The translations under genes were made by a program, and so were the position numbers. This document shows, piece after piece, positions 43,580-56,149 of a stretch of 64,000 nt of DNA. This stretch comes from Gemmatimonas sp. (GTDB lineage: Bacteria > Gemmatimonadota > Gemmatimonadetes > Gemmatimonadales > Gemmatimonadaceae), in contig OZ257156.1 of assembly GCA_965279375.1 (NCBI GenBank), positions 32,001-96,000 on the forward strand, given 5' to 3'. Under the pieces are notes generated by a model that saw only the letters and a list, made by a program, of their open reading frames with translations, ran no database searches and was not told the origin of the DNA. Numbering within the stretch: the first letter of the stretch is position 1; every line of letters begins with the position of its first letter.

Positions 43580-43640
43580 TGTCGCGCCATGGCACACTCT
43601 GTCGCGCGACAGAGTGTCGCGTGTCCTCGCGACGAGCCTC
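43580..43640. promoter_or_regulatory. Putative upstream activator sequences for the sigma-54 activator
   Basis: Three TGTCGC half-sites including the perfect 24-bp palindrome ACACTCTGTCGCGCGACAGAGTGT (43594-43617), about 100-135 bp upstream of the -24 box. Confidence 0.6.
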
Positions 43641-43714
43641 CACGCGACCAGTGCAGGAATCTGCAACTGACTGCCGGCCATCCACTTAGCGTCGCGACGT
43701 CCGCTCGTCATGGA

Positions 43715-43731
43715 CCGGCCCGCTCTTTGCT
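43715..43731 (+). promoter_or_regulatory. Sigma-54 (-24/-12) promoter of the aldehyde dehydrogenase operon
   Basis: CCGGCCCGCTCTTTGCT with GG(43717-8)-N10-GC(43729-30); divergent activator adjacent. Confidence 0.75.
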
Positions 43732-43813
43732 AAACCGAATGCCCGACGCTGAGCTCCGGCACGCGTTCCCACCTGCAGCTCCCTCCTCTCTTCCCACCTC
43801 TCGAGGCCCGCGC

Positions 43814-45370
43814 ATGTCTGCTACCATCGAGCCGACCGCCGTACGCGCCACCCTGCCCGACGCTGCTCGCTCCTTCGCGATCGGCATTCCAATCAAGGCA
43901 CGCTACGAGAACTTCATTGGCGGCACGTTCCGCGCGCCCGTGCGCGGGCAGTACTTCTCGAATCCAACGCCCATCACGGGCCAGCATCTGTGCGACGTGG
44001 CGCGCTCCACGTTTGAGGATGTCGAACTCGCCCTCGACGCAGCGCACGCCGCCGCGCCCGCATGGGGCAAAACGTCGGCGACCGTGCGCGCGAACATCCT
44101 GAACAAGATTGCGGATCGTCTCGAAGAGAACCTCGAGTCCATCGCCGTCATCGAAACGATCGACAACGGCAAGCCGATTCGCGAAACGATGGCGGCCGAT
44201 CTGCCGCTCGCGATCGACCACTTCCGCTACTTCGCGGGCGCCATCCGCGCGCAGGAAGGCAGCGCGGGCGAATTGGATGACGACACCGTCGCATACCACT
44301 TTCACGAACCGTTGGGTGTCGTTGCGCAGATCATTCCGTGGAACTTCCCGCTGCTCATGGCGGCGTGGAAGCTGGCGCCGGCGCTCGCCGCAGGAAACGC
44401 GGTCGTGCTCAAGCCGGCCGAGCAGACGCCGGTGTCGATCATGGCCTTCGCCGAGTTGATCGCCGACCTGCTGCCGCCGGGTGTGTTCAACATCGTGAAT
44501 GGTTTTGGCGTCGAAGCGGGTAAGCCGCTCGCCTCGAGCCCGCGTGTTCGCAAGGTGGCGTTCACCGGTGAAACCACGACGGGCCGACTGGTGATGCAGT
44601 ACGCATCGGAGAATCTCACCACGGTCACGCTCGAACTCGGCGGCAAGTCGCCGAACATCTTCTTCCCGGACGTGATGGCGGCGGACGACGCGTTCTTCGA
44701 CAAGTGTCTCGAAGGATTCTCGATGTTCGCACTCAACCAGGGCGAGGTGTGCACCTGTCCGTCGCGCGCCCTCGTGCACGAATCGATCTATGACGCGTTC
44801 ATGGAGCGTGCGGTCGCGCGCGTGAAGGCGATAAAGCTGGGTCACCCGCTCGACAAGTCGACGATGGTCGGCGCCCAGGCCTCCAACGATCAGCTCGAGA
44901 AGATTCTCAGCTACTTCGACATCGCCAATGCCGAAGGCGCGAAGGTACTCACCGGTGGCGCGCGCGCGCAGCACGAGGGCGAACTGGCCGGCGGCTACTA
45001 CGTGCAGCCGACGATTCTGGAAGGGCACAACAAGATGCGTGTCTTCCAGGAAGAGATCTTCGGCCCGGTCGTCTCGGTCACGCGCTTCAAGGACGCAGAC
45101 CACGCGCTCGAGCTGGCCAACGACACGCTCTACGGACTAGGCGCCGGCGTGTGGTCGCGCGACGCGAACACCTGCTATCGCATGGGTCGTGGCATTCAGG
45201 CCGGCCGCGTGTGGACGAACTGCTACCATCTGTATCCGGCGCACGCGGCGTTCGGCGGCTACAAGCAGAGCGGCATCGGCCGCGAGAATCACAAGATGAT
45301 GCTCGGCCACTATCAGCAGACCAAGAACCTGCTGGTGAGCTATAGCCCCAACGCGCTCGGCTTCTTCTGA
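43814..45370 (+). CDS. aldB: NAD-dependent aldehyde dehydrogenase (AldB/ExaC type)
   Basis: [58 protein letters not shown]-terminal LGFF. Confidence 0.9.
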
Positions 45371-45377
45371 GCCCGCA

Positions 45378-45779
45378 GTGACGCCATCACGCGTAGACGT
45401 CTCGCCCGCCGCCGAGCAGTTGCTGCGCAAGTTGCAGTCGCTGCACGGCGAGTTGGTGTTCCATCAGTCGGGGGGCTGCTGCGATGGCAGCTCCCCGATG
45501 TGCTATCCGCGTCGGGAGTTCCGCATCGGTGCGCGTGACGTGTATCTCGGAACGATCGCCGACGTGCCGTTCTACATTGGCGCGCAGCAGTTCGAGTACT
45601 GGCAGCACACGCATCTGACCATCGACGTGGTGCCTGGTCGCGGCGCAGGCTTTTCGCTGGAGACGCCGGAAGGACTGCGATTCCTGACGCGCTCGCGTCT
45701 GTTCGAAGACGCGGAGTATCACGCGCTGGAGGCGGCGGGTCCGCCACCGCGTGGGGATCAGAGTGCGACGGCGCGTTAG
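45378..45779 (+). CDS. DUF779 family protein
   Basis: FHQSGGCCDGSSPMCY, QFEYWQHTHLTIDVVPGRG.GFSLE; usual partner downstream of AldB. Confidence 0.92.
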   Translation: MTPSRVDVSPAAEQLLRKLQSLHGELVFHQSGGCCDGSSPMCYPRREFRIGARDVYLGTIADVPFYIGAQQFEYWQHTHLTIDVVPGRGAGFSLETPEGLRFLTRSRLFEDAEYHALEAAGPPPRGDQSATAR

Positions 45780-46228
45780 GCGTTCGATCCGTTGCCGCGT
45801 GGGATCGACGATGCGGTCAGTCCGAATAGTGCACCAAAGGCGCGGCGGTCGCTGATGTTACCGAGCAAATCGATGTAGATGGGCAACGCACCGCGCACGG
45901 GGATCCAGACCCGCGGTGCGTTGATGGGCCCGCTGTAGCCGGCCGCGGTGCGTTTCACTCGCGCGATGCCAAGGTCACCGCGCGCCACTCGTCTCTGCCA
46001 AAAGAGAAGCGTCTGGATGCGCAGCACGTCCGTCGCGTCGTGCTGCACCTCCACGGCGAGCACGGCCCCGAAGAACCACGCCGGCGCCACGAGAACGCTC
46101 CCCATCGCAATGAGCGTGAGACTCGCGAGTTGGGCGCCCAGCACGATGGCCGCACCGCCAGCGAGCAGCGCGCCCAGGATGACGATGCGCCACACCCAGG
46201 CGATGGCGCCGTAGCGATAGAGCGTCAC
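45776..46228 (-). CDS. Hypothetical membrane protein (2 TM helices plus small beta-rich cytoplasmic domain)
   Basis: Two hydrophobic helices, then LRIQTLLFWQRRV; GTGA overlap with the upstream gene. Confidence 0.65.
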   Translation of the reverse strand: MTLYRYGAIAWVWRIVILGALLAGGAAIVLGAQLASLTLIAMGSVLVAPAWFFGAVLAVEVQHDATDVLRIQTLLFWQRRVARGDLGIARVKRTAAGYSGPINAPRVWIPVRGALPIYIDLLGNISDRRAFGALFGLTASSIPRGNGSNA

Positions 46229-46566
46229 TCCGTGCCCGCGTCGTCGTGGTGCGTGCCGTCCGACTGACTGCCCACGATCGTGCCGTCCGCATCAATCGTC
46301 GCCTCTACATTGGTGTCCGCCTCCGCGTCGAACGAATCGATCTCGGTGTCCATCTCCTGCTCGGAGATCGCGTCAACGATCGTTGAGTCATCGGAGGCGG
46401 CGGTGACCTCGGCCGTGACGATCTCGTTGAGCGAGCCCACGACCTGACCGATTACTTCGCTGATCTGCGCGCTGATGCCGTTCACGCCATCGGCGATCGC
46501 CGGCGTGATCTCGCGCGTGACGCCGGCGGCGGTCTCCGCGATGTTCCCGAATAGTGAGTCTGCCAT
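46225..46566 (-). CDS. Highly acidic hypothetical protein
   Basis: 113 aa, about 25 D/E versus 1 R and no K by hand count; purine-rich RBS. Confidence 0.7.
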   Translation of the reverse strand: MADSLFGNIAETAAGVTREITPAIADGVNGISAQISEVIGQVVGSLNEIVTAEVTAASDDSTIVDAISEQEMDTEIDSFDAEADTNVEATIDADGTIVGSQSDGTHHDDAGTE

Positions 46567-46635
46567 GTTCCCGTCTCGGTGAAGATGCTGATACCACGTG
46601 GCGCTGCGCGTGGAAGCGCACGCGTCATGCCCGTG

Positions 46636-47451
46636 CTACGCCTCGGTGATTCCCGTTTCCTGGTGCATCTGCTCGAGCATGTGCGGATCGCTGATCGCCG
46701 CCGGGCTCACATCGTTCACATGGGAGTCCGGATGTGATTCGGCGTAGGAGTGCAGCGCCTCGGACGCAGCGGGGAGTTCGTCGTGTACGCGGTCAGCGAA
46801 GGCGTCGAGTGCCTCATGCACCTTGTCGGCGTCTGCGTCGAGGGTTTCCCGGACGGCTTCCACCTTCACGCGCGAGGCGTCGATCTCGTTCGCATCCGCA
46901 TTCTGCATGTCGGCGCGTGCATCAATGAAATCCTGGGCGGTATCGCCGAGGTCGGTGGTGACGACATCAACGAGTCCGCCAATCATCCCGACTGTCGGAT
47001 CGATGATTGGATCGATGACTTCCACGACGAGATCAAAGCTTGTCGCGACGGTGCCGATGCTTGGATTCGGGTTGTTCGCGTCGGCGATAATCTCGGGATG
47101 CTCGGCCTTGAAGTCCTGAAAGTGTTCTACGACGTCGCCCTTCCAGCTCGTGATGGCATCGCCGAACTCTTCACCGACTTCCTGCACGTGCGCCCGAATC
47201 GACTCGACGCGCGACTCGCTGAGTGAACGAAACGACGCGTACTCCTCGTCGCTGATCAGCCCTGCCGCATGATCCGACGCGACCTTCGCTTCCTGCTCGA
47301 AAATGACTTTACCGATCTCCGTCTGCGAGAGCGGCGTGTTCTTGTCTTCCGGATGCTCCTTTGCCCACTTGGCTTCGGATTCCTGCACGAAGGTGGTGAA
47401 GGGCATGCCGGTCGTGGCGGTCTCGGTTGCGCCTGGAACGAATTCAGTCAT
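46636..47451 (-). CDS. Acidic helical hypothetical protein
   Basis: 271 aa ORF, D/E-rich, internal SHOCT-like AGLISDEEYASF. Confidence 0.75.
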   Translation of the reverse strand: MTEFVPGATETATTGMPFTTFVQESEAKWAKEHPEDKNTPLSQTEIGKVIFEQEAKVASDHAAGLISDEEYASFRSLSESRVESIRAHVQEVGEEFGDAITSWKGDVVEHFQDFKAEHPEIIADANNPNPSIGTVATSFDLVVEVIDPIIDPTVGMIGGLVDVVTTDLGDTAQDFIDARADMQNADANEIDASRVKVEAVRETLDADADKVHEALDAFADRVHDELPAASEALHSYAESHPDSHVNDVSPAAISDPHMLEQMHQETGITEA

Positions 47452-47587
47452 GGACGACTCGCGGTGTAGGTCGATGCGGTATGCAACGTCGGTCTTGCAT
47501 CACATGTCAGAAGGCGCAGTTTTTACGACAACTGGCTCATGCGCATCAATCGATTCACCTCCCAGGCACTTCGCCGAGGCACGACAC

Positions 47588-47890
47588 ATGACCGCACCGC
47601 TCGTCAATGGCCAGCCAGACCCCGGCGAAAACGCGTCGGCCTCCGATGCGTTCGAAGTGTTCGTCTCCGAGACGCTGCCTGACGGCGTGATGGAGGTGAT
47701 CGAGGCGGTGCACGAACTCACCTCCTCGCCCGTCGAGCTTGCGCAGGAGCATCTCGAGGCGGTGGGCGAACTGCAGATGCAGAGTGTGGAGGCGTTGATG
47801 AACGACGACCCGGACACCGCGCGAGCGTTGCTGGCGGAGGCGGATCAGGAGATGCGCGCGGGAGAAGACGCGCTGAACAACACCGACTGA
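47588..47890 (+). CDS. Small acidic helical hypothetical protein
   Basis: GAGG RBS, 100 aa, E/D-rich, no Lys. Confidence 0.65.
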   Translation: MTAPLVNGQPDPGENASASDAFEVFVSETLPDGVMEVIEAVHELTSSPVELAQEHLEAVGELQMQSVEALMNDDPDTARALLAEADQEMRAGEDALNNTD

Positions 47891-47919
47891 GGTCGCCCGG
47901 CGCTGGTACGACCACGCAG

Positions 47920-47949
47920 CGGCGCGGCTGCCGTATTGCGGCCGCGCCG
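47920..47949. terminator. Hairpin between convergent genes
   Basis: CGGCGCGGCTGC-CGTATT-GCGGCCGCGCCG, 12-bp stem with one G-U pair; no clear U tract. Confidence 0.45.
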
Positions 47950-47960
47950 AAGCCCGTCGC

Positions 47961-48578
47961 TTACTCGGTGGTGGCCTCCGCTGAGGTATCCGCAACCGTC
48001 GACGCCGCGTAGCTGCCGCCTGCATCACCGGCATCGGCGTGCGCGTCCGCCGCATCAGCATGCGACGCGGCAGTATCGGCATACTGCTCGGCGTGCGCAT
48101 AGTCGCCTTCGGCTGCGTATGACGCGGCGGAGTCTGCGTTCATGTTCGCGGTCTCCTGCTCGTCGCTCGCATTCTCCAACGCCTTCACTTCGTCGTACTG
48201 GGTATCCTGCTGCGCGTCGATGGTCGGGTGCGCGGCTTCGGCGCCACGATCATCCGCTTCCTTGAGATCGTATTCGGCGAGCTTGGCCATCTCTTCGGCC
48301 TTTTCGTAGTCGCCTGACTCGACTGCGACCGCTTGCTCGTGCCGCGCTTCACGCGCGCTCTCGAGCGCATCATCGGCTGCCTGCGCGTCGAGCTTGGCGT
48401 CGAAGATCTCTTCTTCGGTGAGGGTACCCGCGGCGAGATCGTCGGCGACGGTCACGGTCACCTGCTCCGCCTCTTCCTTCGAGAGCCCCGCCACTTCGAG
48501 ATCGAGCGCATCCTGGACGCGCTGCTGCTCTGCCGCCCGCTGTGCGAGTTCCTCTGCTTCGGTTTCTGTGTCGGCCAT
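47961..48578 (-). CDS. Acidic Ala-rich helical hypothetical protein
   Basis: GGAG RBS; 205 aa dominated by A/D/E; two GDY..AE..A motifs. Confidence 0.75.
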   Translation of the reverse strand: MADTETEAEELAQRAAEQQRVQDALDLEVAGLSKEEAEQVTVTVADDLAAGTLTEEEIFDAKLDAQAADDALESAREARHEQAVAVESGDYEKAEEMAKLAEYDLKEADDRGAEAAHPTIDAQQDTQYDEVKALENASDEQETANMNADSAASYAAEGDYAHAEQYADTAASHADAADAHADAGDAGGSYAASTVADTSAEATTE

Positions 48579-48680
48579 GGTGCGCTCCGATTGGTGTGGC
48601 GAGTGAGGTAGCGATGGTGGTGTCGAACGACTTGTCGGCAGATCCGGCCGTGCGGATGCATTTCGACGTTCTACGTGTGC

Positions 48681-49214
48681 TCAGCCGCTGTCGGGCTCCG
48701 TGGTGGCTGCGGCATCGTGCGCCGCTTCCACGGGCGCTGGTGGCGGCGGAGGTTCCGGCTCGGGCTCCGGCTCGACGGTGGCCTCAGGTTCTTCCGCGGG
48801 GCCGGCGCCACGTGGGTCCGGCGTCGCGTCCTCCACGTGCCCGGTGGCACTCGATCCTTCGTCGTGATGCGGATCGGTCGTTGTGGATGCATCTGTGGCC
48901 GCAGATGCCTGCGCGGTCTGCTGCTGAGCGGCTTGCTGCGACGCCTGTTGCGCAGACTGTTGTGCCGCTTGCTGCGACGCTTGCTGCGACAGCTGCTGCG
49001 CGCCGTGCGATTGCGCGAGCATGTGCTGCGGCTCGACGCGCGCGCCGAGTGCGTCCATGCCCATGCCATCGGGTTGCCCTTCGATGTCCACCGATCCGGT
49101 GGCGCGCGTGTTCAGCTCGACCTCGACGACGGGCGCGTCTTCGTGTGTACCGTCGACGGTGGGCCCGTCTGCCGAATCGACGACTGACACGCGGACCTCG
49201 CTGGGGCTCGTCAT
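48681..49214 (-). CDS. Acidic low-complexity hypothetical protein
   Basis: GAGG RBS; SQQA/AQQS repeats, PEPEPEP and poly-Pro tail. Confidence 0.65.
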   Translation of the reverse strand: MTSPSEVRVSVVDSADGPTVDGTHEDAPVVEVELNTRATGSVDIEGQPDGMGMDALGARVEPQHMLAQSHGAQQLSQQASQQAAQQSAQQASQQAAQQQTAQASAATDASTTTDPHHDEGSSATGHVEDATPDPRGAGPAEEPEATVEPEPEPEPPPPPAPVEAAHDAAATTEPDSG

Positions 49215-49275
49215 GCGTGCCTCATGCGGCCGTCCTGCGTGGCGCCTGCGATCGTTGCGGCGTGTTCATGCGCGT

Positions 49276-50880
49276 TCACTCGCTCTGTGTGGACGCGGCC
49301 GCGAGGTCCGCGTTCGCAGGTGCGACGTTCGCAGGTGCGACGTTCGCAGGTGCGGTGTTTGCAGGTGCGGTGTTTGCTGGCGCGGCCGGTTTGGGCTTTA
49401 CCAGCAGAATTGCTCGGCAGGTTGGCGTCGGGCAGCGCACGTTGAGCGACTCCTTGCCGGCCAGCGCTGCCGCGGGAATTCGCATCCCCTCGCTGCACTT
49501 CGCACACACAATGCGGATGGTATCCGCATCGGCGGCTGGCGCTGGTGCGGGAGGCGTAGGAGGCGGCGACGGCGCTTTCGGCGTAACCGTCAACACGGCG
49601 CGACAGTTCGGATTGGGACAGCGCACGTTCACCGGCGCCGTGCCTTCGAGTGCGGTGCGTGGCACACGCATGCCTTCGTTGCACTTCGCGCACACCAGGC
49701 GCACCGTGTTGGGGTCCGGCGGCACCGGCGTGTTGCTCACGCGCGTCGTGGCGTTCGTCGGTGCGCTCTGCGTCGCCGTTCCATTTGCGGCCGCTGCGGG
49801 AGGCAACCAGTGCGTGATGACCGCGCGCCACGCCTGCACATACTCGCTGCGGGCGAACTCGCGCATCAGTCGCAACCGACCGGCGAGATAGGGCGCCGAG
49901 GCCAGCGTCCACTCGGAGAACTGGGTGAGGCTGTCGTCGGCGGCGTCCTCCTGCTCCATCCATGCGTCGTGGTTCATGCGCTGGAGGAGCGGAAACGAGC
50001 GGAACGTCCAGGCCTGCAGCACGCGACGCGCGATCGCTTCGTTGCCGACACACATCACGCCGGCATAGTCGGCGGTGATTTCCGCGTGTCGTGCCCACGC
50101 CATGAGCGGCGCATCGATTGCGTTCTCGATCAGCTTGGCCGGGTTGAGCATCTTGAGCACGCCGTCGCCCATGATGGAGCGCTTCTGACTCCGGCCGGAG
50201 ATGAACTGCATCACCGTCTTCCAGAGCGCGTGTCCGGCACGACAGTGTCCCATCTCGCGCCCCAGCACGAACAGGAGCTCGTCCTCCTTGAAGTTGAGGA
50301 GCACGCTGCCGATGACGATGAAGGCGCTGTTCTCCGTGCCGAGCGTCATCGCGTCCCACATCTGATCTCCCGAGATGTAGATCTCGGGCAGATATGGCAG
50401 TCCGACGATGCGTGCCGCGCGGATGGCGGTGTCGAAGACATCCGGGAGCTGACGTTCGCTCAGACGCAGGCCGTTGACGGCGGACTCGAACCACCGTCGA
50501 CCAACCTTTTCTGATATCGCGTGCGCGGCCTGCGTGAGCGGGCCGAGCGAACGCAGCACGTTCATCGCGTCAGCGTCGAGGCGCCAGAGAAACGCTTCGA
50601 CGGGGAGCGCATAGTCGGGCGCGAGTGGCCGAAGCCAGCGACAGGTGCTGCAGTAGACCTTTGCTGCGGGAAGTCCGGAGCCGTCGCCGTTGCAGGTGGG
50701 ACAGACGTATCCCATCGCGTACGGAGAGTACGCCATCGGCACGGGCGGCTGATACGCGTGTTCGGCGTAGCCGTTGGGTGCGTACGCCGACGACGCGTTG
50801 GCCGTCGCCACCGACGCGCCGCAATGAATGCAGAAGCGCGCGTCGGCGGCGAGCGTACCGGAGCAGGAGGTGCACTGCAC
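49276..50880 (-). CDS. M48 (HtpX/Ste24)-like peptidase domain with four Zn ribbons; HExxH replaced by RExxH
   Basis: LSERQLPDV, P.IYI, DAMTLG, ELLFVLGREMGHCRAGH, WARHAEITADYAG; CxxC pairs at both ends. Confidence 0.8.
   Translation of the reverse strand: MQCTSCSGTLAADARFCIHCGASVATANASSAYAPNGYAEHAYQPPVPMAYSPYAMGYVCPTCNGDGSGLPAAKVYCSTCRWLRPLAPDYALPVEAFLWRLDADAMNVLRSLGPLTQAAHAISEKVGRRWFESAVNGLRLSERQLPDVFDTAIRAARIVGLPYLPEIYISGDQMWDAMTLGTENSAFIVIGSVLLNFKEDELLFVLGREMGHCRAGHALWKTVMQFISGRSQKRSIMGDGVLKMLNPAKLIENAIDAPLMAWARHAEITADYAGVMCVGNEAIARRVLQAWTFRSFPLLQRMNHDAWMEQEDAADDSLTQFSEWTLASAPYLAGRLRLMREFARSEYVQAWRAVITHWLPPAAAANGTATQSAPTNATTRVSNTPVPPDPNTVRLVCAKCNEGMRVPRTALEGTAPVNVRCPNPNCRAVLTVTPKAPSPPPTPPAPAPAADADTIRIVCAKCSEGMRIPAAALAGKESLNVRCPTPTCRAILLVKPKPAAPANTAPANTAPANVAPANVAPANADLAAASTQSE
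49311..49385. repeat. Five tandem 15-bp units encoding PAN(T/V)A
   Basis: cgttcgcaggtgcga-type unit three times, then two tgtttgc(a/t)gg(t/c)gcgg variants. Confidence 0.9.
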
Positions 50881-50886
50881 AGACTA

Positions 50887-51891
50887 TCAGAGCCGCTTGA
50901 GGATTTCGGCCTTCTTCGCGTCGAATTCTTCCGCCGTGATGGCGCCCATGTCCCGCATTTGCGCGAGCTGCTTCATCTGCTCGACGAGACCGGACTCCGC
51001 AGGCGCGGCGTTGGCGGGTGGCTGCGGTACGTGCGGCGGCGGTGGCGGTGGCGGCGCGTACTGCCCCGGCGGCGGAGGAGGTGGTGCGTACGCACCGTTC
51101 GCCTGCGGCGGAGGCGGCGGTGGCGTGTAGCTCTGCTGCGGTGGCGGTGGTGGTGGCGGCGTGTAGCTCTGCTGCGCGCCGGCCGTGGCGCCATAGGTGC
51201 CCATCTGCAGCTGCGAGAGCAGCTTTTCGGCCATCTCCTTGGGCACGGTGCTGGTGAGGCTGTACGCCTGCCATGCCAACGAGGCCGCGCCCAGAATCAG
51301 GATGATGAAAGCGAGGCCGGTATAGATGTTGAGAAAGACACCAAGGATCGTGACGCCGATGGCGATCGTCATCTGCTTCGAGATGCTTTCCGGCTTGCAG
51401 TCGATGCGCACCTGGCTCTGGCGCGGTCCGCTGCCCGTGACCGTGATGTCGCCGACGTACGTGACCTTTTGTCCACCGGTGGTCCAGAAGTCCTTCTTTA
51501 TCACGGAGTACTTGATGGTCTGCGGCGGTGCCTGCCACATCACCTGGCCGTTGATAGTTCCGACGGCCGCGATCGCCTGCGCAAACGCCGTCCCTTGATC
51601 GACGTTCAGGCCGACCTGCACACCGGCGCCACCACCACCGATGCCGCGACTGAATCCGGCTGCAGGCGGTGGAGGCGGTGGTGGCGGTGGTGGATAGTTG
51701 TTCGGCGGCGGAGGCGGTGGTGCCTGAAAACCGTTGGGCGGCGGTGGAGGCGGCGCTGACTGCCCCGCATTGGGCGCTCCTCCGGCGACGAGTGTGCCGC
51801 CGCACCCCGCGCAGAAGCGCGCTTGGGCAGGGTTTGCGGCTTGGCAACGCGGGCACTGCACGGTCGCGGCGGAATTCGGCGGCGCAGTCAC
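50887..51891 (-). CDS. Zn ribbon - polyPro - 2 TM - polyPro - SHOCT membrane protein
   Basis: CPRC..N...ARFCAGCG, two TM helices, C-terminal QMKQLAQMRDMGAITAEEFDAKKAEIL; GTG start with AAGGA RBS. Confidence 0.8.
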   Translation of the reverse strand: MTAPPNSAATVQCPRCQAANPAQARFCAGCGGTLVAGGAPNAGQSAPPPPPPNGFQAPPPPPPNNYPPPPPPPPPPAAGFSRGIGGGGAGVQVGLNVDQGTAFAQAIAAVGTINGQVMWQAPPQTIKYSVIKKDFWTTGGQKVTYVGDITVTGSGPRQSQVRIDCKPESISKQMTIAIGVTILGVFLNIYTGLAFIILILGAASLAWQAYSLTSTVPKEMAEKLLSQLQMGTYGATAGAQQSYTPPPPPPPQQSYTPPPPPPQANGAYAPPPPPPGQYAPPPPPPPHVPQPPANAAPAESGLVEQMKQLAQMRDMGAITAEEFDAKKAEILKRL

Positions 51892-52061
51892 AGATCGGTC
51901 CTTGCGGGTAGTGAATCGGCGGAGGGACGCACACCAGAGAGAGCGCGAAATGGCGCGGCCGAGGCTCATCCATGCGCGACGAGCCACAGTCGACCGCTTT
52001 TGCGCCTTGGGTGGAGACGCGATCGCCGAACGGCGCGTCGTTCCCCAGCCCGGAGCAGGAG

Positions 52062-52997
52062 ATGCACCGACTGCAGCACGCAGCACTCGTCAGCGCGATG
52101 GCCGTCGTCGCCCACGTGAGCGCGCCCCAAGATCTCTTTCGCGACCCGGCGGGGCGCTTCACGCTGATGGTGCCATCGGGCTGGCGCGCCACCCCACAGG
52201 GTGGCGGCGTCGTGATCACCAACGGGAACGTGATGGCGATGTTCTCGCCATTCAGCGGCGTGCGTTCCGGCAACGACGTCGTGGCCGCGCTGAATGCGCA
52301 GTACGGTGCGCAGTGGCGCGATCTGCGTACGATGGATCAGGGGACGTTCAGCGTGGCCGGCCGCCCCACCGCATACGCGGTGTATTCAGGCACCAATCCG
52401 CGCGGAGTGCCGTCCATCTTGCGACTCGCCGGGCTGACCGATTCGCGAGACGGCTACGCCATCGTGATGTCCGCGCCGCAAAGCGAATTCAACGCCGCGA
52501 GCCAAACGCTGCAGGCGCTCGAACAGAGCTTCACTCTTGCCGACGCAGGTGGCGCGGGACCGGCACCCGCGCCCGTTCCGGGCCCGCTTCCGCCACCGAT
52601 GCAGGGAGGCGGTGCGTTAGGCATTCGCGGCAATGGCATGCCGCCGAACGGTGGGATGCCGAATGGCCCCGTGCCAAATGGCCCAGTGCCGAACGGCGGC
52701 GCGCCGTCGGGACGCGCCACCCTCGGCGTCTACACGCGCAACGTCGAGGCGGCCGATCTGCCGCGCATTGGCATCAAGGAGCAGTTGGGTGCTCTCATCG
52801 AGCAGGTCGCACCCGGAAGCGCCGCGGAACGCGCGGGATTGGTGCCGGGCGACGTCATACTCAGCGCGGACCAGCAGACGATTCGTCAGCACACCGAACT
52901 CCAGCGCGTGGTGCAGAGCCATCGGCCAGGCGAGTCCGTGTCGCTGATCCTGATGCGCGGCGGACGCCCACTGACGCTGGCGGTGACGCTGCGGTGA
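52062..52997 (+). CDS. Secreted protein with PsbP/DcrB-like N-domain and C-terminal PDZ domain
   Basis: AGGAG RBS, signal-like N-terminus, FRDPAGRFTLMVPSGW, Pro/Gly/Asn linker, LGVY...GALIEQVAPGSAAERAGLVPGDVI. Confidence 0.8.
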   Translation: MHRLQHAALVSAMAVVAHVSAPQDLFRDPAGRFTLMVPSGWRATPQGGGVVITNGNVMAMFSPFSGVRSGNDVVAALNAQYGAQWRDLRTMDQGTFSVAGRPTAYAVYSGTNPRGVPSILRLAGLTDSRDGYAIVMSAPQSEFNAASQTLQALEQSFTLADAGGAGPAPAPVPGPLPPPMQGGGALGIRGNGMPPNGGMPNGPVPNGPVPNGGAPSGRATLGVYTRNVEAADLPRIGIKEQLGALIEQVAPGSAAERAGLVPGDVILSADQQTIRQHTELQRVVQSHRPGESVSLILMRGGRPLTLAVTLR

Positions 52998-53069
52998 CGT
53001 TGCGGTGAGTCGCGATAGCTCCGCGCAGACGTCGCGGAGCGCGCGCCATCGCAGGAGTTCGCGTCTCAG

Positions 53070-53537
53070 CTACCGCTGTCGCGAACGTACGTATGCCTGG
53101 CGGCGCGATTCCAGTTGCTCGACGGCCGCACGCGGCACCAGCGCATCGACTGCGCCTCGCGCCGAACGTGCTCGCTCTTCGAGGTCGTCAGCGACATACG
53201 ACGGAATCACGACCTGACGTCCGCTTGCAATGACCAGCAGAGAGTCGCCGCCGGCGCCAACCGGTACGTCACGGCGCTCACGCCAGCGCGCGCGAAAGAG
53301 ATCGAGCTGCTCGAACGCGCCGTACAGCCAATCGAGGTGCGTGACGTAGAGCGGAAACGGTTGCGTCCAGACCGGCGCGCGAGGCGCTCCCGGGTCCACC
53401 TGCAACTCGATCAGCCCCTCGGCGCGCGGCCCGATTCGCACAATGCGTCGCCAGTTGTGCGGCGAAGCAAGCGGCGGTGAACTTTGCGTCCACTCCGCAC
53501 GAAAGTCGGCCGGACGCGGTGTGCTTCTTGTGAGCAT
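53070..53537 (-). CDS. Hypothetical protein
   Basis: Globular-looking 155 aa 3' part of ORF 53070..53777 (PLYVTHLDWLYGAFEQL...GRQVVIPSYV). Confidence 0.55.
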   Translation of the reverse strand: MLTRSTPRPADFRAEWTQSSPPLASPHNWRRIVRIGPRAEGLIELQVDPGAPRAPVWTQPFPLYVTHLDWLYGAFEQLDLFRARWRERRDVPVGAGGDSLLVIASGRQVVIPSYVADDLEERARSARGAVDALVPRAAVEQLESRRQAYVRSRQR

Positions 53538-53562
53538 TGTGTGCCGTGTGGCCGTGTGGCGG

Positions 53563-53826
53563 TCAGCTGAGTGGCGTTGTACCGCCCGCGGTGTGCTGCT
53601 CCATCGGCAGCCCCACGTGTTCATCGGACACGCGATCATCCGGCGACATCGGGCTGTGCGCGCTGTGCGGGTCAGCCATCGCGGATTCGTCGATACAGAG
53701 CGGCGCAGGCGCGTCAGGCACGGCCACCGGAATCTCGGCGGTCGCCTCCAGCGGCTTCGGTGTCTCCGCAGTCGCATCGATGACCACGGGGAACTCCGCC
53801 GTCGCGTCGACGATGGGCTCCTGCAC
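53563..53826 (-). CDS. Small acidic hypothetical protein with three (D/E)ATAExP repeats
   Basis: GTG start sharing one base with the upstream TAG; GAAGGGG RBS; repeats with 10-aa period. Confidence 0.5.
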   Translation of the reverse strand: MQEPIVDATAEFPVVIDATAETPKPLEATAEIPVAVPDAPAPLCIDESAMADPHSAHSPMSPDDRVSDEHVGLPMEQHTAGGTTPLS

Positions 53827-54446
53827 TACCCCTTCGTCTTCTGGTTCTCGTAGCTGATGTTCGCGCACGTCATCGACGCGTCGATGGCGGGCGTGAAGTT
53901 GTTCACCAGCTTCATGCTGCTGGCACCGGGCAGAATCGGATCGGAGCAGGTCGACGCGACATGACGGCCATCGTTGCACATCACCACGACGTCGAGGCAC
54001 ATCGTGCGATTGGCCTGCGCCATGTTCTGAAAGCCGCACTGCACCGCGTCCGCGCTCACCCCGGTGCACCCCATGAACGTGACCGAGGTGTCGCCGGACA
54101 GTTCGTTCATGCCGTCCTTCATCTGACCAACGCCGCTGTAGATCGCGAAGGCACCGAGCGCGCCCATCAATCCACGTACGACGAGACGCGCCTTGGGATC
54201 CTTGGGCATCCAATCCATCCGCGACTTCTTCTCTCGCGGCTCAGGCGAAACCGGTGCGGGTGGCGGCGACGCGGCCAAGGTGGATACCAACGGTGTGGAG
54301 GCGGCTGCGACCCAGTCTCCATAGCCCGGCGAAACCAGCGTCGAACCGTTGATGGCCCCTGAGCGGATCAGCGCGTCCATCGCAGCACGCGGCAGCGGAC
54401 CGACGCTCGCGCCGTCCTGCACGTAGTACCACGTCTCGACACTCAT
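53826..54446 (-). CDS. GYF_2 (DUF4339) domain membrane protein with Cys-rich C-terminal domain
   Basis: WYYVQDG...GPL....M..LI.SGAI...TLV..G..DWV; one TM helix; 6-Cys C-terminal domain. Confidence 0.82.
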   Translation of the reverse strand: MSVETWYYVQDGASVGPLPRAAMDALIRSGAINGSTLVSPGYGDWVAAASTPLVSTLAASPPPAPVSPEPREKKSRMDWMPKDPKARLVVRGLMGALGAFAIYSGVGQMKDGMNELSGDTSVTFMGCTGVSADAVQCGFQNMAQANRTMCLDVVVMCNDGRHVASTCSDPILPGASSMKLVNNFTPAIDASMTCANISYENQKTKG

Positions 54447-54676
54447 GACGCCAGCCCCCTCTGCGCGAGCGCAATGGACGCGCGGTGCTGAGTGTACGCG
54501 ATCGATGCGAGCGAGCCGAGCATGGTAAATCCTCCGCAGGAATGAACGCGCCCATCTGGCAGGGAGCGGCACCTCGTGTGATATCTGACAACAAGGCGCA
54601 AAAGTCCGCCGAACAGGCTCACCGACAGATCGCGACGGTTCAAACCCTTATGTCCTCCACGGCGTCCGAGACCGGT

Positions 54677-56149
54677 ATGACATACCGCCCAGCCATCCGT
54701 TGCCCGAAGCGGCGCCCTTCCCGCGCGCGTCCCGCGCTACGCTGTGCCGCGAGCGCGACTCTGCTGATCCTCGCGCAAGTGCCTGCGCTGACCGCGCAAA
54801 CGCGACCGACGCAGCCGGCCGCAAAGCGCGCAGCGACGGTGCGCACGACGTCGGCCCTGCGATCGGCGATCGACTCGACGGCGCGAGCACTGGTCAAGGA
54901 GGGACGCATCGCCGGGCTGTCGATTGCGGTGCTCAGAGGACGAGACACCCTCGCACTGGCTGGCTATGGATCGGCGGACCTCGAGCTGAATGTGCCGACG
55001 CCCGCACGCGCGATCTACGAGATCGGCTCGGTCACCAAGCAGTTCACCGCCGCTGCGATTCTCATGCTTCGCGACGAGGGCAAGCTCTCACTCGATGCCG
55101 ACATCACCACCTACCTACCGGACTATCCGACGCAGGGACATCGCGTGACGGTGCGTCGACTTCTCGACCACACATCGGGCATCAAGGGCTATACAGAGAT
55201 CGAAGCGTTCGAGGCCATGATGCCGCGCGACCTTCCCAAGGATTCGCTGGTCGCGCTGTTCAGCAAGGCACCATTCGACTTCGCACCTGGCGAGGCGGAG
55301 ATCTACAACAACTCCGCGTTCTTCCTGCTGGGGCTCATCATCGAGAAGACGTCGGGGATGACCTATGCCGACTTCGTGCAGAAGCGACTTTTCGACAAGG
55401 TAGGCATGCCGGATTCACGCTACTGCTCCGAGAGCGCGATCACGCCGCGCAAAGCGCACGGCTATGACATGTCCTCCAAGGGTCTCGTGCACAAAGGCTT
55501 CATCGTGCACACATATCCGTACTCGGCCGGCTCGCTTTGTTCGAGCGCTGCCGATCTGCTCACGTGGCTCGTTGCGCTGCACGGCGACCGCGTGCTTCCG
55601 GCTGCGTCGTATCGGGAGATGACGCGCCCCGCCACGCTCTCTGACGGCACCACGCTGCGCTACGGCATGGGACTCGCCCTACACACACTGGGCGGACATC
55701 CGGCCATCGAGCACGGCGGTGGCATCCCGGGTTTCCTGTCGAGCACCGCGTACTTTCCGGCGCACGGGAGTCAGCCCGACATGTACGTCGTCGTACTGCT
55801 CAACACGGCGGGACCCGTGTCCGCCGAGAGCGTGACGAGCCAGATCGCTGAGTTGGTACTGGGCCCAGCGGTACGCGTCGCGCTGCCGTCGCCAACCAGT
55901 GCATCGACGCTCGTCGGCACGTACGCGGGTACGGGACGCGGAGAGGTGCGGACGGTTTCCATCACGTGGGAGAACGGTACGCTCAACGCCGCCGTGGGGA
56001 AGCGACCGGCGCGCGCGCTGCGCTACATCGGCAACGACACATGGGAGATGGACGACACCCGACTGACGTTCACCACCGCTTCCGGCGCGACGCACACGCT
56101 GCGCTACGACACGGCCTACGGCTACTCGATTCTCTCGCGCACGCCGTAG
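54677..56149 (+). CDS. Serine hydrolase, beta-lactamase/AmpC-like peptidase family
   Basis: IGSVTKQF (SxxK), LLDHTSG, YNN (YxN), HGGGIPGF; signal-like N-terminus. Confidence 0.9.
   Translation: MTYRPAIRCPKRRPSRARPALRCAASATLLILAQVPALTAQTRPTQPAAKRAATVRTTSALRSAIDSTARALVKEGRIAGLSIAVLRGRDTLALAGYGSADLELNVPTPARAIYEIGSVTKQFTAAAILMLRDEGKLSLDADITTYLPDYPTQGHRVTVRRLLDHTSGIKGYTEIEAFEAMMPRDLPKDSLVALFSKAPFDFAPGEAEIYNNSAFFLLGLIIEKTSGMTYADFVQKRLFDKVGMPDSRYCSESAITPRKAHGYDMSSKGLVHKGFIVHTYPYSAGSLCSSAADLLTWLVALHGDRVLPAASYREMTRPATLSDGTTLRYGMGLALHTLGGHPAIEHGGGIPGFLSSTAYFPAHGSQPDMYVVVLLNTAGPVSAESVTSQIAELVLGPAVRVALPSPTSASTLVGTYAGTGRGEVRTVSITWENGTLNAAVGKRPARALRYIGNDTWEMDDTRLTFTTASGATHTLRYDTAYGYSILSRTP

Follow-up and report, generated by a model that had tools for sequence, protein, structure and literature searches.

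The window analysed here, 64,000 nucleotides of a Gemmatimonas sp. genome, contains an interval of 12 ORFs bounded by a DUF779 gene and a beta-lactamase-family hydrolase gene (Table 1). Ten of these ORFs lie on the minus strand and two, the PDZ gene and ac3, on the plus strand; the ORF list, GC3 and homology all agree here with the earlier note on this DNA. GC3 ranges from 0.74 to 0.85 in 10 of the 12 ORFs versus 0.54-0.66 in long alternative-frame ORFs, the values for hyp and ac6 having been measured on longer ORFs only (53070-53777, 0.71; 53563-54213, 0.60). By composition, the frame of hyp is ambiguous, with a competing plus-strand ORF at 53115-53480 (GC3 0.80), and the minus-strand frame was chosen because homologues settle it. 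The start of TM2 overlaps the stop of ac1 by 4 nt and the GYF_2 gene overlaps ac6 by 1 nt, while gaps of 6 and 25 nt separate the M48-like gene from the SHOCT gene and hyp from ac6, respectively. Six proteins, ac1 to ac6, are indeed very acidic (pI 4.05-4.24, net charge -14 to -44), and hydropathy gives no hydrophobic segment in any of them. The SHOCT, GYF_2 and PDZ assignments made previously also stand, with Pfam scores of 37.2, 40 and 56 bits for cut-offs of 27, 25.8 and 27. Synteny with same-genus genomes ends at DUF779, so that the region is variable.

Table 1. Coordinates of the features discussed (window positions, unless a locus is named).
Feature	Coordinates	Strand	Length	Remarks
DUF779 (left flank)	45378-45779	+		Pfam E 1.5e-47
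TM2	45776-46228	-	150 aa	
ac1	46225-46566	-	113 aa	
ac2	46636-47451	-	271 aa	
ac3	47588-47890	+	100 aa	
ac4	47961-48578	-	205 aa	core operon, gene 4
ac5	48681-49214	-	177 aa	"small acidic" slot
M48-like pseudopeptidase (predicted)	49276-50880	-	534 aa	Pfam Peptidase_M48
SHOCT membrane protein	50887-51969	-		Pfam SHOCT; core operon, gene 1
PsbP-like/PDZ protein	52062-52997	+	311 aa	Pfam PDZ_2
hyp	53070-53537	-	155 aa	frame fixed by homology
ac6	53563-53826	-	87 aa	GTG start
GYF_2 protein	53826-54446	-	206 aa	Pfam GYF_2
beta-lactamase-family hydrolase (right flank)	54485-56149	+		Pfam E 2.2e-68
Core operon	47961-51969	-		four genes
ac1-like N-terminus, L013	12325-12642			shared motif
ac1-like N-termini, L040	8235-9464, 7498-8157			shared motif
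ac1-like N-termini, L041	9420-10625, 8839-9318			shared motif

The interval is a real gene cluster, though not one uniform system, and its invariant part is a four-gene operon encoding, in this order, the SHOCT protein, the M48-like protein, a small acidic protein and ac4. This gene order recurs in 26 distinct genome loci belonging to two phyla, in Gemmatimonadaceae and in a Terricaulis-like alphaproteobacterial clade. Scattered homologues that never co-localise would have spoken against the earlier note; instead, the SHOCT gene lies directly upstream of the M48-like gene in 25/26 loci, the exception having no upstream DNA, and ac4 lies downstream of it in 24/26, the two exceptions ending inside the M48-like gene. 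Across these loci the M48-like proteins are 48-82% identical (48-56% for the proteobacterial ones). Genomes G125 and G052 carry the same core, which is also present in two further proteobacterial loci, a Pseudomonadota MAG (L018) and a gamma-type metagenome contig (L045). The cluster is rare, being found in 5 of 401 Gemmatimonadaceae-family genomes (including the unpublished G174) and in 27 of 148 genomes of the alphaproteobacterial family. The specific family occurs on none of 72,556 plasmids, and ordinary cellular genes flank L024, the one alphaproteobacterial locus examined in full. The cluster has probably spread laterally. Alphaproteobacterial pairs give dN/dS values of 0.06-0.19 (ac4), 0.11-0.35 (small acidic gene) and 0.07-0.16 (M48-like gene), which are rough since dS is saturated. 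Around the core, gene order is rearranged among Gemmatimonadaceae, and ac3, ac6, hyp and the PsbP-like/PDZ gene are still linked to it. Co-localisation, which the single envelope-associated system suggested earlier would entail, is thus seen for the core four and these four genes, but not for ac2, TM2 and the GYF_2 protein, which have no linked homologue in three other cluster-bearing genomes (G009, G052 and G125), even though the GYF_2 gene is translationally coupled to ac6.

The SHOCT protein is composed of an N-terminal Zn ribbon, a poly-Pro linker, a KA1-like alpha/beta domain, a two-helix membrane hairpin, a second poly-Pro linker and a C-terminal SHOCT domain (Pfam E 2.1e-9), an order also based on the family alignment (A7) and the AF2 model. 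Two start codons are candidates, ATG 51969 or GTG 52086. In the AF2 model the KA1-like domain packs onto the membrane hairpin, and VIA-align of this model retrieves the KA1 domain of Chk1 (Z 11.4, rmsd 2.4, 92 residues aligned), BamC-N (11.1) and the AMPK C-terminal domain (11.1). Because there is no signal peptide and the SHOCT protein has a two-helix hairpin, a cytoplasmic location is predicted for the M48-like protein, for the Zn ribbons and for the KA1-like and SHOCT domains of the membrane protein; the core would therefore act at the inner face of the membrane. In the literature, SHOCT-like domains are predicted to be inner-leaflet anchors for domains (PMC11237479), and membrane proteins bind partners through Zn ribbons, as in ZitP-PopZ (PMC5182065) and GltJ (PMC11135422).

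The M48-like protein matches Peptidase_M48 with 47.2 bits (cut-off 20.3; E 3e-12) and belongs to a family of 746 clusters at E <= 1e-30. The four Zn ribbons attributed to it earlier, two N-terminal and two C-terminal, agree with the distribution of Cys: there are CxxC motifs at residues 3, 17, 60, 77, 397 and 459, and the partner motifs CPNPNC and CPTPTC complete the two C-terminal ribbons, ahead of an (APANx) repeat at the C-terminus. It had also been counted as part of a membrane module; it is, however, without any hydrophobic segment by hydropathy and is thus soluble, not itself a membrane protein. Moreover, the HEXXH position reads REMGH. Among the 120 best family members, this motif is REMGH in 96, REMGR in 19 and RQMGH in 2, with 3 unmatched and HEXXH in none. 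The first zinc-ligand His is thereby replaced by Arg in 117/120, and the third-ligand Glu is replaced in 40/120 (Ala 38, Asp 2). Alignment with canonical 337-aa M48 relatives likewise shows the H to R exchange, the change of THP to SAP or NAP (SAP in the window protein, at the expense of a conserved His) and the loss of a hydrophobic hairpin. Judged by these residues, the protein is a pseudopeptidase whose zinc site has been lost, and it can therefore be proposed that it binds without cutting. The processing of acidic proteins envisaged by the earlier note is hard to reconcile with a family throughout which this first His is absent. Nevertheless, an unusual metal site and residual activity may exist, since most members keep the catalytic Glu (115/120), the second His (98/120) and the third-ligand Glu (74/120).

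Two acidic proteins belong to the core. According to AF2 (pLDDT 87.3, pTM 0.74), ac4 (pI 4.05, net charge -44) is predicted to fold into an all-helical bundle that contains GD[YW]xxA hairpins and is followed by a disordered tail with TTE as its last residues. Its family, which has conserved small and aromatic residues, comprises 107 clusters, none of which has a name or a Pfam domain; Glu is the last residue in 99 of them, TTE the last three in 73, and the median His content is 1.4%. A profile search with ac4 returned 146 representatives, TPR proteins being the weakest matches, and a structure search gave no specific fold match. The structural neighbours include the small metal-binding protein SmbP (Z 8.7), within the noise for helical bundles. 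The other acidic core protein, ac5, is rich in Q, A and P, and its gene comes immediately after that of the M48-like protein. In 21 of the 24 loci that yield an M48-like ORF, this place is taken by an acidic ORF of some 100-180 aa (22 ORFs passed the filter, of which one, a fragment of the M48-like gene itself, was left out). The start of this ORF overlaps the stop of the M48-like gene in those alphaproteobacterial loci that were inspected. On present comparisons, the position of ac5 is conserved and its sequence hardly so, the one match being local (L014 4572-5039, pairwise E 6e-4).

The other acidic genes are conserved to different degrees. ac3 (pI 4.05) is conserved next to ac4 in genus g23, and tblastn with ac3 finds L040 (E 2e-10) and L041 (E 8e-12), where it adjoins both ac4 and hyp (alignment A8); hhalign gives a probability of 19% to a distant kinship of ac3 with ac4. 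ac6 (pI 4.05) has a GTG start preceded by AAGGGG, and in L014 its homologue (5697-6053; pairwise E 2e-7, 41% over 71 residues) immediately follows ac4. ac1 (pI 4.05, net charge -24, C-terminal TE) has an N-terminus, MADSLFGNI..., like those of acidic proteins encoded in related clusters (Table 1), and its similarity to a G009 protein is weak (pairwise E 0.005). A Flagellin_IN match of ac1 remained below threshold (22.1 bits for a cut-off of 22.7) and is not relied on. ac2 (pI 4.24, net charge -41) has no relatives in the metagenome scan and a single weak match in G009, G052 and G125 (G052:C88, E 2.2e-5, 24% identity), in an ORF located away from the core, between a 225-aa ORF and one for a 443-aa multi-helix membrane protein. 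As to the conservation of acidic ORFs on which the earlier idea depended, ac3, ac4 and ac6 bear it out, ac1 and ac5 do so weakly or by position, and ac2 does not. His/Asp-rich stretches occur in the acidic proteins from genus g23 and from L018.

The PsbP-like/PDZ gene is divergent from the core operon. Its product, probably secreted to judge by a putative signal peptide in its sequence, has a PDZ_2 domain (E 4.9e-15) and no protease domain; the PsbP match is weak in the window protein (E 0.005) and exceeds the cut-off for the orthologue in L040 (25.1 bits versus 23.5). Linkage of the gene with the core is seen in L015 and L040, in L013, where it is split into two genes, and in L014, where only the PDZ part is present. 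The basic protein hyp, with no Pfam match even at E 5, is very rare (5 clusters among 5.8 billion proteins). Its homologues adjoin ac3/ac4 in L040 and L041, with a fragment in L015, and TM segments are present at the C-terminus of some relatives (P0112 and the version in L040). TM2 is basic (pI 11.3; GC3 0.81), and its residues 6-48 make up an N-terminal hydrophobic hairpin. It has no Pfam, NCBIfam or PADLOC match and no homologue in G009, G052 or G125, and the TM protein encoded at the corresponding place in G009 is not similar to it. The GYF_2 protein combines an N-terminal GYF domain (E 3.2e-10), a type of domain that binds a Pro-rich segment (PMC11135422), with a probable single membrane helix and a C-terminal region containing 6 Cys. 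Matches in G052 and G125 are limited to the GYF domain and lie on other contigs, and G009 has none; co-transcription of the GYF_2 gene with ac6 and hyp is predicted in the window genome only.

The cluster, uncharacterised so far, thus brings together a membrane anchor, a protease look-alike apparently devoid of its zinc site and very acidic helical proteins, and recurs in distant bacterial groups. We tentatively propose, with a probability of about 0.4, that it forms a non-catalytic platform for protein binding at the cytoplasmic side of the inner membrane, with a link to envelope signalling, rather than a machine for processing or export. The conserved gene order, the domain content, the loss of catalytic residues and the confidence of the ac4 fold are the observations behind this proposal. 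In the topology and binding steps that we infer, the SHOCT protein, a bitopic-hairpin protein of the inner membrane, would tether the pseudopeptidase under the membrane; the latter would use its degenerate substrate groove, its Zn ribbons or both to hold the acidic proteins, among them ac4 as a TPR-like bundle with its conserved carboxy-terminus. Additions to the platform in Gemmatimonadaceae would be extra acidic proteins resembling paralogues, together with the hyp domain and a PsbP-like/PDZ protein of the periplasm, and the window genome would add a receptor-like GYF_2 protein that could read the poly-Pro linkers.

An active system, in which the M48-like protein works as a metalloprotease, if an unusual one, and the acidic proteins are matured or degraded by it, would account for the significant M48 match, for the retained catalytic Glu, second His and third-ligand Glu, and for the acidic genes that follow the M48-like gene and, in the alphaproteobacterial loci inspected, overlap it. 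We consider it unlikely, because the first ligand is almost always Arg, the THP His is gone too, and the REMGR and RQMGH variants and the Ala/Asp at the third ligand are the relaxed pattern expected of a dead site. Just as unlikely is a rare mobile conflict or anti-phage module with the membrane protein as effector and the acidic proteins as mimics or inhibitors. The rarity of the cluster would also fit an accessory or conflict function, and its patchy presence in two phyla, the variable region beyond DUF779 and the fast divergence of the acidic proteins point the same way. However, PADLOC gives only one marginal match (ZorA, on ac2, E 0.0047), no nuclease, NTPase or other usual effector domain is present, and the absence from plasmids, the cellular flanks of L024 and purifying selection on the acidic genes of alphaproteobacterial loci all argue against it.

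That the acidic proteins buffer divalent metals, organised by the membrane and Zn-ribbon proteins, is doubtful: their charges, the His/Asp-rich stretches and SmbP among the ac4 neighbours are in keeping with it, but the SmbP match is within noise, His is scarce in the ac4 family, ac4 is a predicted folded bundle and not a low-complexity chelator, and Pfam and NCBIfam reveal no metal transporter or metal-sensing regulator in the cluster. A polarity or scaffold hub like ZitP-PopZ, with Zn ribbons on membrane-associated proteins recruiting acidic hub proteins to the cell pole or bud site, is more doubtful again. The main host clade belongs to Caulobacterales, and in ZitP it is an N-terminal PF13719 ribbon that binds PopZ (PMC5182065); the C-terminal ribbons of the M48-like protein resemble the related PF13717, but below cut-off (E 2.5e-4, 21.3 bits versus 30.3), no cluster protein matches PopZ or DUF3426, and rarity in Gemmatimonadaceae argues against a basic cell-biological role there. 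Export of the acidic proteins by the membrane components, also raised by the earlier note, is very improbable. Acidic genes do adjoin membrane-protein genes, and Gemmatimonadaceae have the periplasmic PDZ protein; however, Pfam and NCBIfam searches of the cluster ORFs show no transporter, ATPase or secretion component, no channel-forming or outer-membrane component is present, the core has a two-helix hairpin as its sole membrane element, and the acidic proteins have no hydrophobic N-terminus.

For the non-catalytic platform, envelope-linked signalling or stress response would be the likeliest role, because an ECF sigma/Hanks-kinase pair adjoins the cluster in four related loci. In L013, L040, L041 and L018, the genes for an ECF sigma factor and a Ser/Thr kinase (with or without FHA) are adjacent and convergent to it. 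ECF sigma/kinase pairs may be common in the group of the window genome, so that this adjacency may partly be inherited synteny. No such pair occurs within about 10 kb in the 21 alphaproteobacterial loci; a partial ECF gene lies at the very edge of one of them. In L045, an ECF sigma gene alone stands beside the cluster, and in the window genome the nearest ECF/kinase pair lies 12 kb off (32639-34194).

The conserved order of the genes for a SHOCT-domain membrane protein, an M48-like protein, a small acidic protein (ac5 in this genome) and a further acidic protein, ac4, indicates that these four genes, found on the minus strand, form a core operon within the island. Among 40 related genomes searched, a true ortholog of the M48-like protein was found in one of the 24 that belong to the same genus (G009, 66% identity); its neighborhood holds the SHOCT-protein and M48-like genes together with genes for three acidic proteins and for PDZ/PsbP-like proteins. 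A scan using one genome per species yielded 26 distinct loci carrying the M48-like gene: four from Gemmatimonadales/Gemmatimonadaceae MAGs, 21 alphaproteobacterial (titled Terricaulis, Hyphomonadaceae, Caulobacteraceae, Alphaproteobacteria or Proteobacteria) and one titled only Pseudomonadota. Identity to the M48-like protein of the window is 48-82% over the 26 loci and 48-56% in the proteobacterial ones. The SHOCT-protein gene stands directly upstream of the M48-like gene in 25 of the 26 loci, the remaining one having no upstream DNA, and ac4 is found downstream in 24, the other two ending within the M48-like gene. Of the 24 loci with an extracted M48-like ORF, 21 have an acidic ORF of about 100-180 aa between that gene and ac4; in the alphaproteobacterial loci inspected, the start of this small gene overlaps the M48-like stop. 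At L024, the one alphaproteobacterial locus examined in full, the four core genes are flanked by ordinary cellular genes. The SHOCT/M48-like/acidic order is also present outside the main clades in a Pseudomonadota MAG (L018) and in a metagenome contig (L045, 67% identical to a gamma-type member). The outcome by which the earlier note would have been refuted, homologs that are scattered and never co-localize, does not hold for the core, whose order is kept in the 26 loci as well as in L018 and L045.

The M48-like gene occurs in 5 of 401 genomes and 2 of 77 genera of the family to which the window belongs (one of the five, the unpublished G174, enters the count only), and in 27 of 148 genomes of the alphaproteobacterial family of L024. 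At E <= 1e-30 the protein family comprises 746 clusters (90% identity), whose sources include Pseudomonadaceae, Pseudomonadales and Candidatus Tectomicrobia; two complete genomes also carry a member. A search of metagenome contigs with P0212, a gamma-type M48-like representative, gave a true relative in 1 of 26 loci, the other matching loci aligning only to its first 46 residues, which are the N-terminal Zn ribbon. On plasmids, only generic M48 genes were found (at most 34% identity over at most 39% of the query), and ac4 had no match there. One alphaproteobacterial M48-like copy (G519:C7:163946-165214) has an in-frame TGA, which could be a sequencing error or the mark of a decaying copy. To our knowledge, no model organism carries the operon.

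The M48-like protein matches PF01435 over profile positions 11-179 of 186 (E 3e-12, 47.2 bits, cut-off 20.3) and by this match shares the fold family of zinc metallopeptidases of the HtpX/Ste24/BepA type. The nearest relatives found are 337-aa housekeeping M48 proteins, with which it has in common the motif context xEMGHxxxGHAL...RxxE(I/L)(T/S)xDRAG. Ordinary proteins of this kind from related Gemmatimonadales genomes (loci L003, L004 and L009) were used as the reference for alignment; they carry AHE[ML]GH, KSELSxDRAG, THP and a hydrophobic hairpin. In the cluster family, by contrast, the first zinc-ligand position holds Arg instead of His, THP is changed to S[AT]P or NAP, the position of the hairpin aligns to a polar segment, and Zn ribbons are added. 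Among the 120 best family members, the first motif reads REMGH in 96, REMGR in 19 and RQMGH in 2 (three unmatched) and never HEXXH; at the third ligand, 74 members keep Glu, 38 have Ala and 2 Asp (six unmatched). The window protein keeps this Glu, in HAEITAD (ExxxD motif). The scattered further decay of site residues across the family argues for a pseudopeptidase. We read the M48-like protein in this way from its motifs, though an unusual metal site may be present.

The family carries two N-terminal and one to five C-terminal Zn ribbons. The C-terminal ribbons score just under the cut-off for Zn_ribbon_12 (26.5, cut-off 27) and below it for Zn_ribbon_4 (PF13717; E 2.5e-4, 21.3 bits, cut-off 30.3). 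The C-terminus of the window protein also holds a fivefold APANT/APANV repeat (window 49276-49360), and ac5 a QQA(S/A)QQ run (window 48800-48950); both are absent from the aligned relatives.

The SHOCT domain of the membrane protein (PF09851; E 2.1e-9, 37.2 bits, cut-off 27) covers residues 369-396 of the 399-aa ORF and is conserved among 13 aligned relatives. The domain order in this alignment is Zn ribbon, Pro-rich linker, a conserved domain some 80 residues long, a pair of hydrophobic helices, another Pro-rich linker and SHOCT, with a Pro content of 17% in the window protein. In an AF2 model of a 342-aa form (mean pLDDT 71), the central domain reaches about 90 and adopts a beta-alpha-beta4 unit (residues 97-175), followed by helices 178-195 and 201-242. 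The best structural neighbors of this domain are Chk1's KA1 domain (Z 11.4, rmsd 2.4 over 92 aligned residues), BamC's N-terminal domain and AMPK's C-terminal domain (Z 11.1 each), and SRPBCC/Aha1-type domains (Z about 9-10). As modeled, the KA1-like match is one of fold class, with no function implied. The two membrane helices would place both ends of the protein on the same side and, because of the Zn ribbon, we infer that the ribbon and SHOCT ends face the cytoplasm.

The ac4 family counts 107 clusters among 5.8 billion proteins, all annotated as "hypothetical" and none with a Pfam domain. The C-terminal residue is Glu in 99 of the 107 members, and 73 end in TTE. The AF2 model of ac4 (35 sequences) is all-helical, with a pLDDT of 87.3, a pTM of 0.74 and a disordered tail from residue 189. 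A full profile search returned 146 representatives, 98 of them at E <= 1e-10. Many of the matches are longer acidic proteins having the ac4 core at the C-terminus; in the representatives P0248, P0289, P0295 and P0306, it ends highly acidic proteins of 520-740 aa devoid of Pfam domains. The weakest matches are TPR proteins, in agreement with the GD[YW]xxA hairpins of the family. Of 221 Foldseek matches in the PDB at E <= 10, none reached E <= 0.001, and the best Z score of the wide VIA-align search was 10.0, under the value of about 13 expected for helical bundles. The ESCRT-III and MIT chains among the fold neighbors of ac4 lie within helical-bundle noise. Weak PDB matches to the SonA/LigA domain (E 0.005-0.009, residues 56-106) had raised the possibility of a RiPP precursor; they were judged compositional and set aside because RiPP enzymes are absent and ac4 is a folded protein of 205 aa. 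The hhalign comparison of ac3 with ac4 (probability 19%, E 0.0012) was insufficient for paralogy.

The acidic ORFs, which the earlier note had counted as genes of the system, behave as conserved coding genes: in alphaproteobacterial pairs, dN/dS lies in the purifying range, with rough values, dS being saturated, of 0.06-0.19 for ac4, 0.11-0.35 for the small acidic gene and 0.07-0.16 for the M48-like gene. Among Gemmatimonadaceae, the dN/dS comparison is saturated (dN 0.53-0.80) and uninformative.

The source genome is a single contig of 5.31 Mb, and the window has about 65% G+C. Between the DUF779 gene and the beta-lactamase-family hydrolase gene lie 12 ORFs, 10 of which are on the minus strand. 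GC3 is 0.74-0.85 in 10 of the 12, compared with 0.54-0.66 in long overlapping ORFs of other frames. For hyp (a hypothetical protein) and the acidic ac6, it was measured on longer ORFs only (0.71 and 0.60, respectively); the frame of hyp is ambiguous by composition, and its homologs decide for the minus-strand frame. TM2 (encoding a protein with two transmembrane segments) and the acidic ac1 overlap by 4 nt, the start of ac6 is preceded by AAGGGG and overlaps the stop of the GYF_2-protein gene by 1 nt, the M48-like gene begins 6 nt downstream of the SHOCT-protein gene, and 25 nt separate ac6 from hyp. As judged from the sequence, two gene pairs of this genome are translationally coupled, GYF_2 with ac6 and TM2 with ac1. 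A promoter and terminator scan of positions 45300-54800 stayed at chance level (0 promoters versus 1.0 expected, 4 terminators versus 4.6 expected). The six acidic products have pI values of 4.05-4.24, net charges of -14 to -44 and no hydrophobic segment, and the Pfam domains above cut-off are Peptidase_M48, SHOCT, GYF_2 and PDZ. NCBIfam gave only generic HtpX and PDZ matches on the 12 proteins, far under the cut-offs. The description in the earlier note therefore holds for the ORFs, the acidic products, the Pfam domains and, by Cys pattern, the four Zn ribbons of the M48-like protein, and needs correcting on two points concerning this same protein. Its HEXXH position reads REMGH, and it is not a membrane protein, since no 19-residue window has a mean hydropathy above 1.6 and the transmembrane helices of HtpX/Ste24 type are absent.

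Around the core, the gene set is partly shared within Gemmatimonadaceae. In G125 and G052, from a second genus, genes for ac3-like, hyp and PsbP-like/PDZ proteins come after the core, in an order that differs from that of the window. A Gemmatimonadales MAG (L014) has an ac6 homolog after ac4 (pairwise E 2e-7), and the closest relative (L015, 82% identity) shows the hyp/PDZ/SHOCT/M48 arrangement of the window. Robust linked homologs are found for seven genes (those of the SHOCT and M48-like proteins, ac4, ac3, ac6, hyp and PDZ) and weak or positional counterparts for two, ac5 (E 6e-4) and ac1 (pairwise E 0.005), the latter sharing the N-terminal motif MA[DE][SG]xxGDI with its counterparts. The three genes without a linked homolog are ac2, TM2 and GYF_2. 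A weak match to ac2 (E 2.2e-5) occurs elsewhere in G052, on a 5-kb contig without a core gene, and none of 114 pattern matches in metagenome contigs is a relative. TM2 had no match in the other cluster-bearing genomes searched and is not similar to the TM protein of G009. The GYF_2 protein (PF14237; E 3.2e-10, 40 bits, cut-off 25.8) has no Zn-ribbon Pfam match and no Cys ahead of its membrane segment; elsewhere, its GYF domain alone finds matches, on contigs other than those of the core. The hyp family has only five clusters in the collection searched, two versions bearing C-terminal membrane helices, and nothing under E 0.2 among PDB sequences. An assignment of hyp to Emfourin, which came from a labeled cluster (score 0.91, family share 21%; the nearest clusters are unnamed), was dropped because Pfam gave no match even at E 5. 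The PDZ protein resembles HtrA/DegP in its PDZ domain but has a PsbP-like N-terminal part, above the Pfam cut-off in the L040 ortholog (second genus), instead of the trypsin-like protease domain; NCBIfam degP_htrA_DO reaches only 69.7 bits (cut-off 416), over residues 248-340.

In G009, G125 and G052, genes for an ECF sigma factor (PF07638 type), a Ser/Thr kinase (long C-terminal region, TPR-type) and an FHA protein adjoin the cluster (Table). Identity is 56-57% among the kinases and 60% among the FHA proteins. In L045, an ECF gene is upstream of the cluster. None of the 21 alphaproteobacterial loci has the ECF/kinase pair within about 10 kb; a partial ECF gene lies at the edge of one of them. 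In the window, the nearest such pair (32639-34194, plus strand) is 12 kb from the island and so not adjacent; its sigma factor and kinase are 43% and 35% identical to those beside the G009 cluster. In G009 and L045, but not in the window, the region upstream of the SHOCT gene encodes papain-like membrane-anchored proteins (Peptidase_C70/C39_2) and Q/Y/P-rich membrane proteins; in the genome of the window, the best papain-like match lies far from the island, at about 1.34 Mb, with 27% identity.

Table. Positions of the genes bordering the island and of genes beside the cluster in other genomes
Feature	Position	Strand or orientation	Remarks
DUF779 gene	window 45378-45779	+	Pfam E 1.5e-47; flanks the 12-ORF island
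Beta-lactamase-family hydrolase gene	window 54485-56149	+	flanks the island on the other side
ECF sigma/kinase/FHA set	L013 (G009) 13679-17318	convergent to cluster	Gemmatimonadaceae genome
ECF sigma/kinase/FHA set	L040 (second genus) 109-3618	convergent to cluster	Gemmatimonadaceae genome
ECF sigma/kinase/FHA set	L041 (second genus) 2184-5736	convergent to cluster	Gemmatimonadaceae genome
ECF sigma/kinase pair	L018 12668-15641	convergent to cluster, same position as in Gemmatimonadaceae	Pseudomonadota MAG
Papain-like protein	L013 (G009) 8188-9009	+	Peptidase_C70 E 4.4e-11, plus Peptidase_C39_2; just upstream of SHOCT gene
Papain-like protein	L045 848-1513	-	Peptidase_C70 E 1.3e-7, plus Peptidase_C39_2; just upstream of SHOCT gene

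The cross-phylum operon order, a protease fold without its metal site and an acidic partner that is folded in the AF2 model and has a conserved C-terminus are the basis of our main reading, to which we give a probability of about 0.4: the cluster would encode a non-catalytic sub-membrane platform tied to envelope-linked signaling. The SHOCT protein, a membrane protein made solely of interaction-type domains, would tether the pseudopeptidase at the inner membrane face, and the pseudopeptidase would hold the acidic proteins via its former substrate groove, with Arg at the metal-ligand place, and/or via its Zn ribbons. More loosely, the platform might take part in envelope-linked signaling, an idea suggested by the neighboring sigma/kinase genes and the periplasmic PsbP/PDZ partner of Gemmatimonadaceae. 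Much firmer than this role is the view of the core as a genuine, conserved module whose M48 fold appears, from its motifs, to be catalytically dead. The complex prediction for residues 55-450 of the M48-like protein with residues 1-190 of ac4 scored 0.00 and bears on neither side. A more specific scheme, which we consider improbable, is that the zinc-less M48 fold, with its Arg at the ligand position, reads the acidic ...TTE C-termini of the TPR-like acidic family and holds them on the SHOCT/KA1-like anchor; the neighboring Hanks kinase and FHA protein would control release or capture via Ser/Thr-rich tails, and the signal would pass into the ECF sigma factor. If true, this would be a new signaling architecture built around a pseudoprotease, and an unrecognized kind of sub-membrane assembly.

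Pseudoproteases such as iRhoms and CspC act as regulators or scaffolds; in common with the M48-like protein they retain a protease fold and have lost catalytic residues, but they belong to another protease clan. ECF sigma factors of the ECF43 type are activated by Hanks-type Ser/Thr kinases. PF07638-type ECF sigma and kinase genes adjoin the cluster in L013, L040, L041 and L018, but the pair is outside the island of the window and absent near the 21 alphaproteobacterial loci, and a regulatory link would be hypothetical. We class the cluster with the sub-membrane operons of interaction-domain proteins that have been catalogued around SHOCT and PSP systems. In that catalogue, one such operon combines a membrane-associated metallopeptidase with PspAB and an occasional SHOCT-like gene, and SHOCT-like domains are predicted to position domains at the inner leaflet (PMC11237479). 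Like these operons, the core joins a 2-TM protein that bears a SHOCT domain to a partner from a metallopeptidase family, and its predicted role is likewise at the inner face; it differs in that its peptidase homolog is soluble and, by motif, presumably inactive, and in that its acidic partners are new families. None of the 12 proteins has a Pfam match at E <= 0.01 to PspA/Snf7, PspAA, PspAB, Toastrack, PspC or LiaI-LiaF-TM. For SHOCT, whose function is described as open, initial experiments did not support oligomerization (PMC3581485). ZitP and GltJ each bind protein partners through a Zn ribbon, and the target of GYF is a Pro-rich segment (PMC5182065; PMC11135422); published SHOCT, Zn-ribbon and GYF work backs single steps of the platform only by analogy. 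The Myxococcus ZnR-linker-GYF protein GltJ resembles the window GYF_2 protein in its N-terminal cytoplasmic GYF followed by a membrane/receptor part, and its GYF binds Pro-rich partners, a feature to be set beside the Pro-rich SHOCT protein (PMC11135422). The window GYF_2 protein differs in having no Zn ribbon of its own and in not being beside the core in other genomes, and no MglA/AglZ context was seen around it.

Of the other explanations, an active protease carries the most weight, followed by a conflict system, then a metal buffer and a polarity hub, with an export device last. Active proteolysis is among the worst fits to the sequence data. Public records label the M48-like subfamily "M48 family metallopeptidase" or "Zn-dependent protease with chaperone function", an annotation that is probably misleading because the zinc site is lost in the subfamily. 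Against a conflict system, 11 of the 12 proteins have no match in PADLOC-DB 2.0, and ac2 has a single marginal one, to ZorA (E 0.0047, 13.5 bits). In a metal buffer, the acidic proteins would bind divalent metals and the membrane and Zn-ribbon proteins would organize them; the predicted folding of ac4 speaks against a low-complexity chelator. For a polarity hub, the comparison is with Caulobacter, whose PopZ is acidic. The likeness to ZitP-PopZ is that a membrane-associated protein binds its partner by a Zn ribbon (PMC5182065), but the ribbon match of the core (PF13717) is below cut-off, ac4 is predicted to be folded rather than disordered, and the 12 proteins have no Pfam match to PopZ or DUF3426. 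An export device would correspond to part of the suggestion of the earlier note that the membrane components bind, process or export the acidic proteins. Pfam, NCBIfam and PADLOC revealed no enzyme, transporter or NTPase in the island and, with the M48-like zinc site lost, processing or export is not supported; export is, with active proteolysis, among the worst fits.

As far as full-text searches reach, neither the operon nor a Zn-ribbon-flanked M48 pseudopeptidase has been described. The parts are members of known superfamilies; within the same reach, no description was found of their combination, of the pseudopeptidase subfamily or of the ac4 and hyp families. New are an operon that is conserved across phyla and has, within the searches made, no studied member, an entire subfamily of M48 homologs that lack the zinc site, and at least two protein families without a Pfam model, ac4 and hyp. 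The cluster offers a testable set of partners for the SHOCT domain. If the link to the ECF sigma/Hanks-kinase pairs holds, the cluster would also be a candidate for the output or the sensor in a form of sigma-factor control that is poorly understood.

The ALDH-like/DUF779 gene pair is syntenic in two genomes of the same genus (76-86% identity). Synteny ends at the DUF779 stop codon, which marks the left edge of the island, and none is seen to the right of DUF779 in genomes G370 or G090. On the other side, the hydrolase has relatives at no more than 44% identity, in two of five same-genus genomes. A minus-strand ORF for a 715-aa regulator, sigma-54-activator-like by eye, is divergent from the ALDH-like gene and DUF779 (window 41379-45779). 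To the right of the hydrolase gene lie two minus-strand ORFs (window 56122-58386) of 258 aa and 490 aa, the latter encoding a multi-helix membrane protein.
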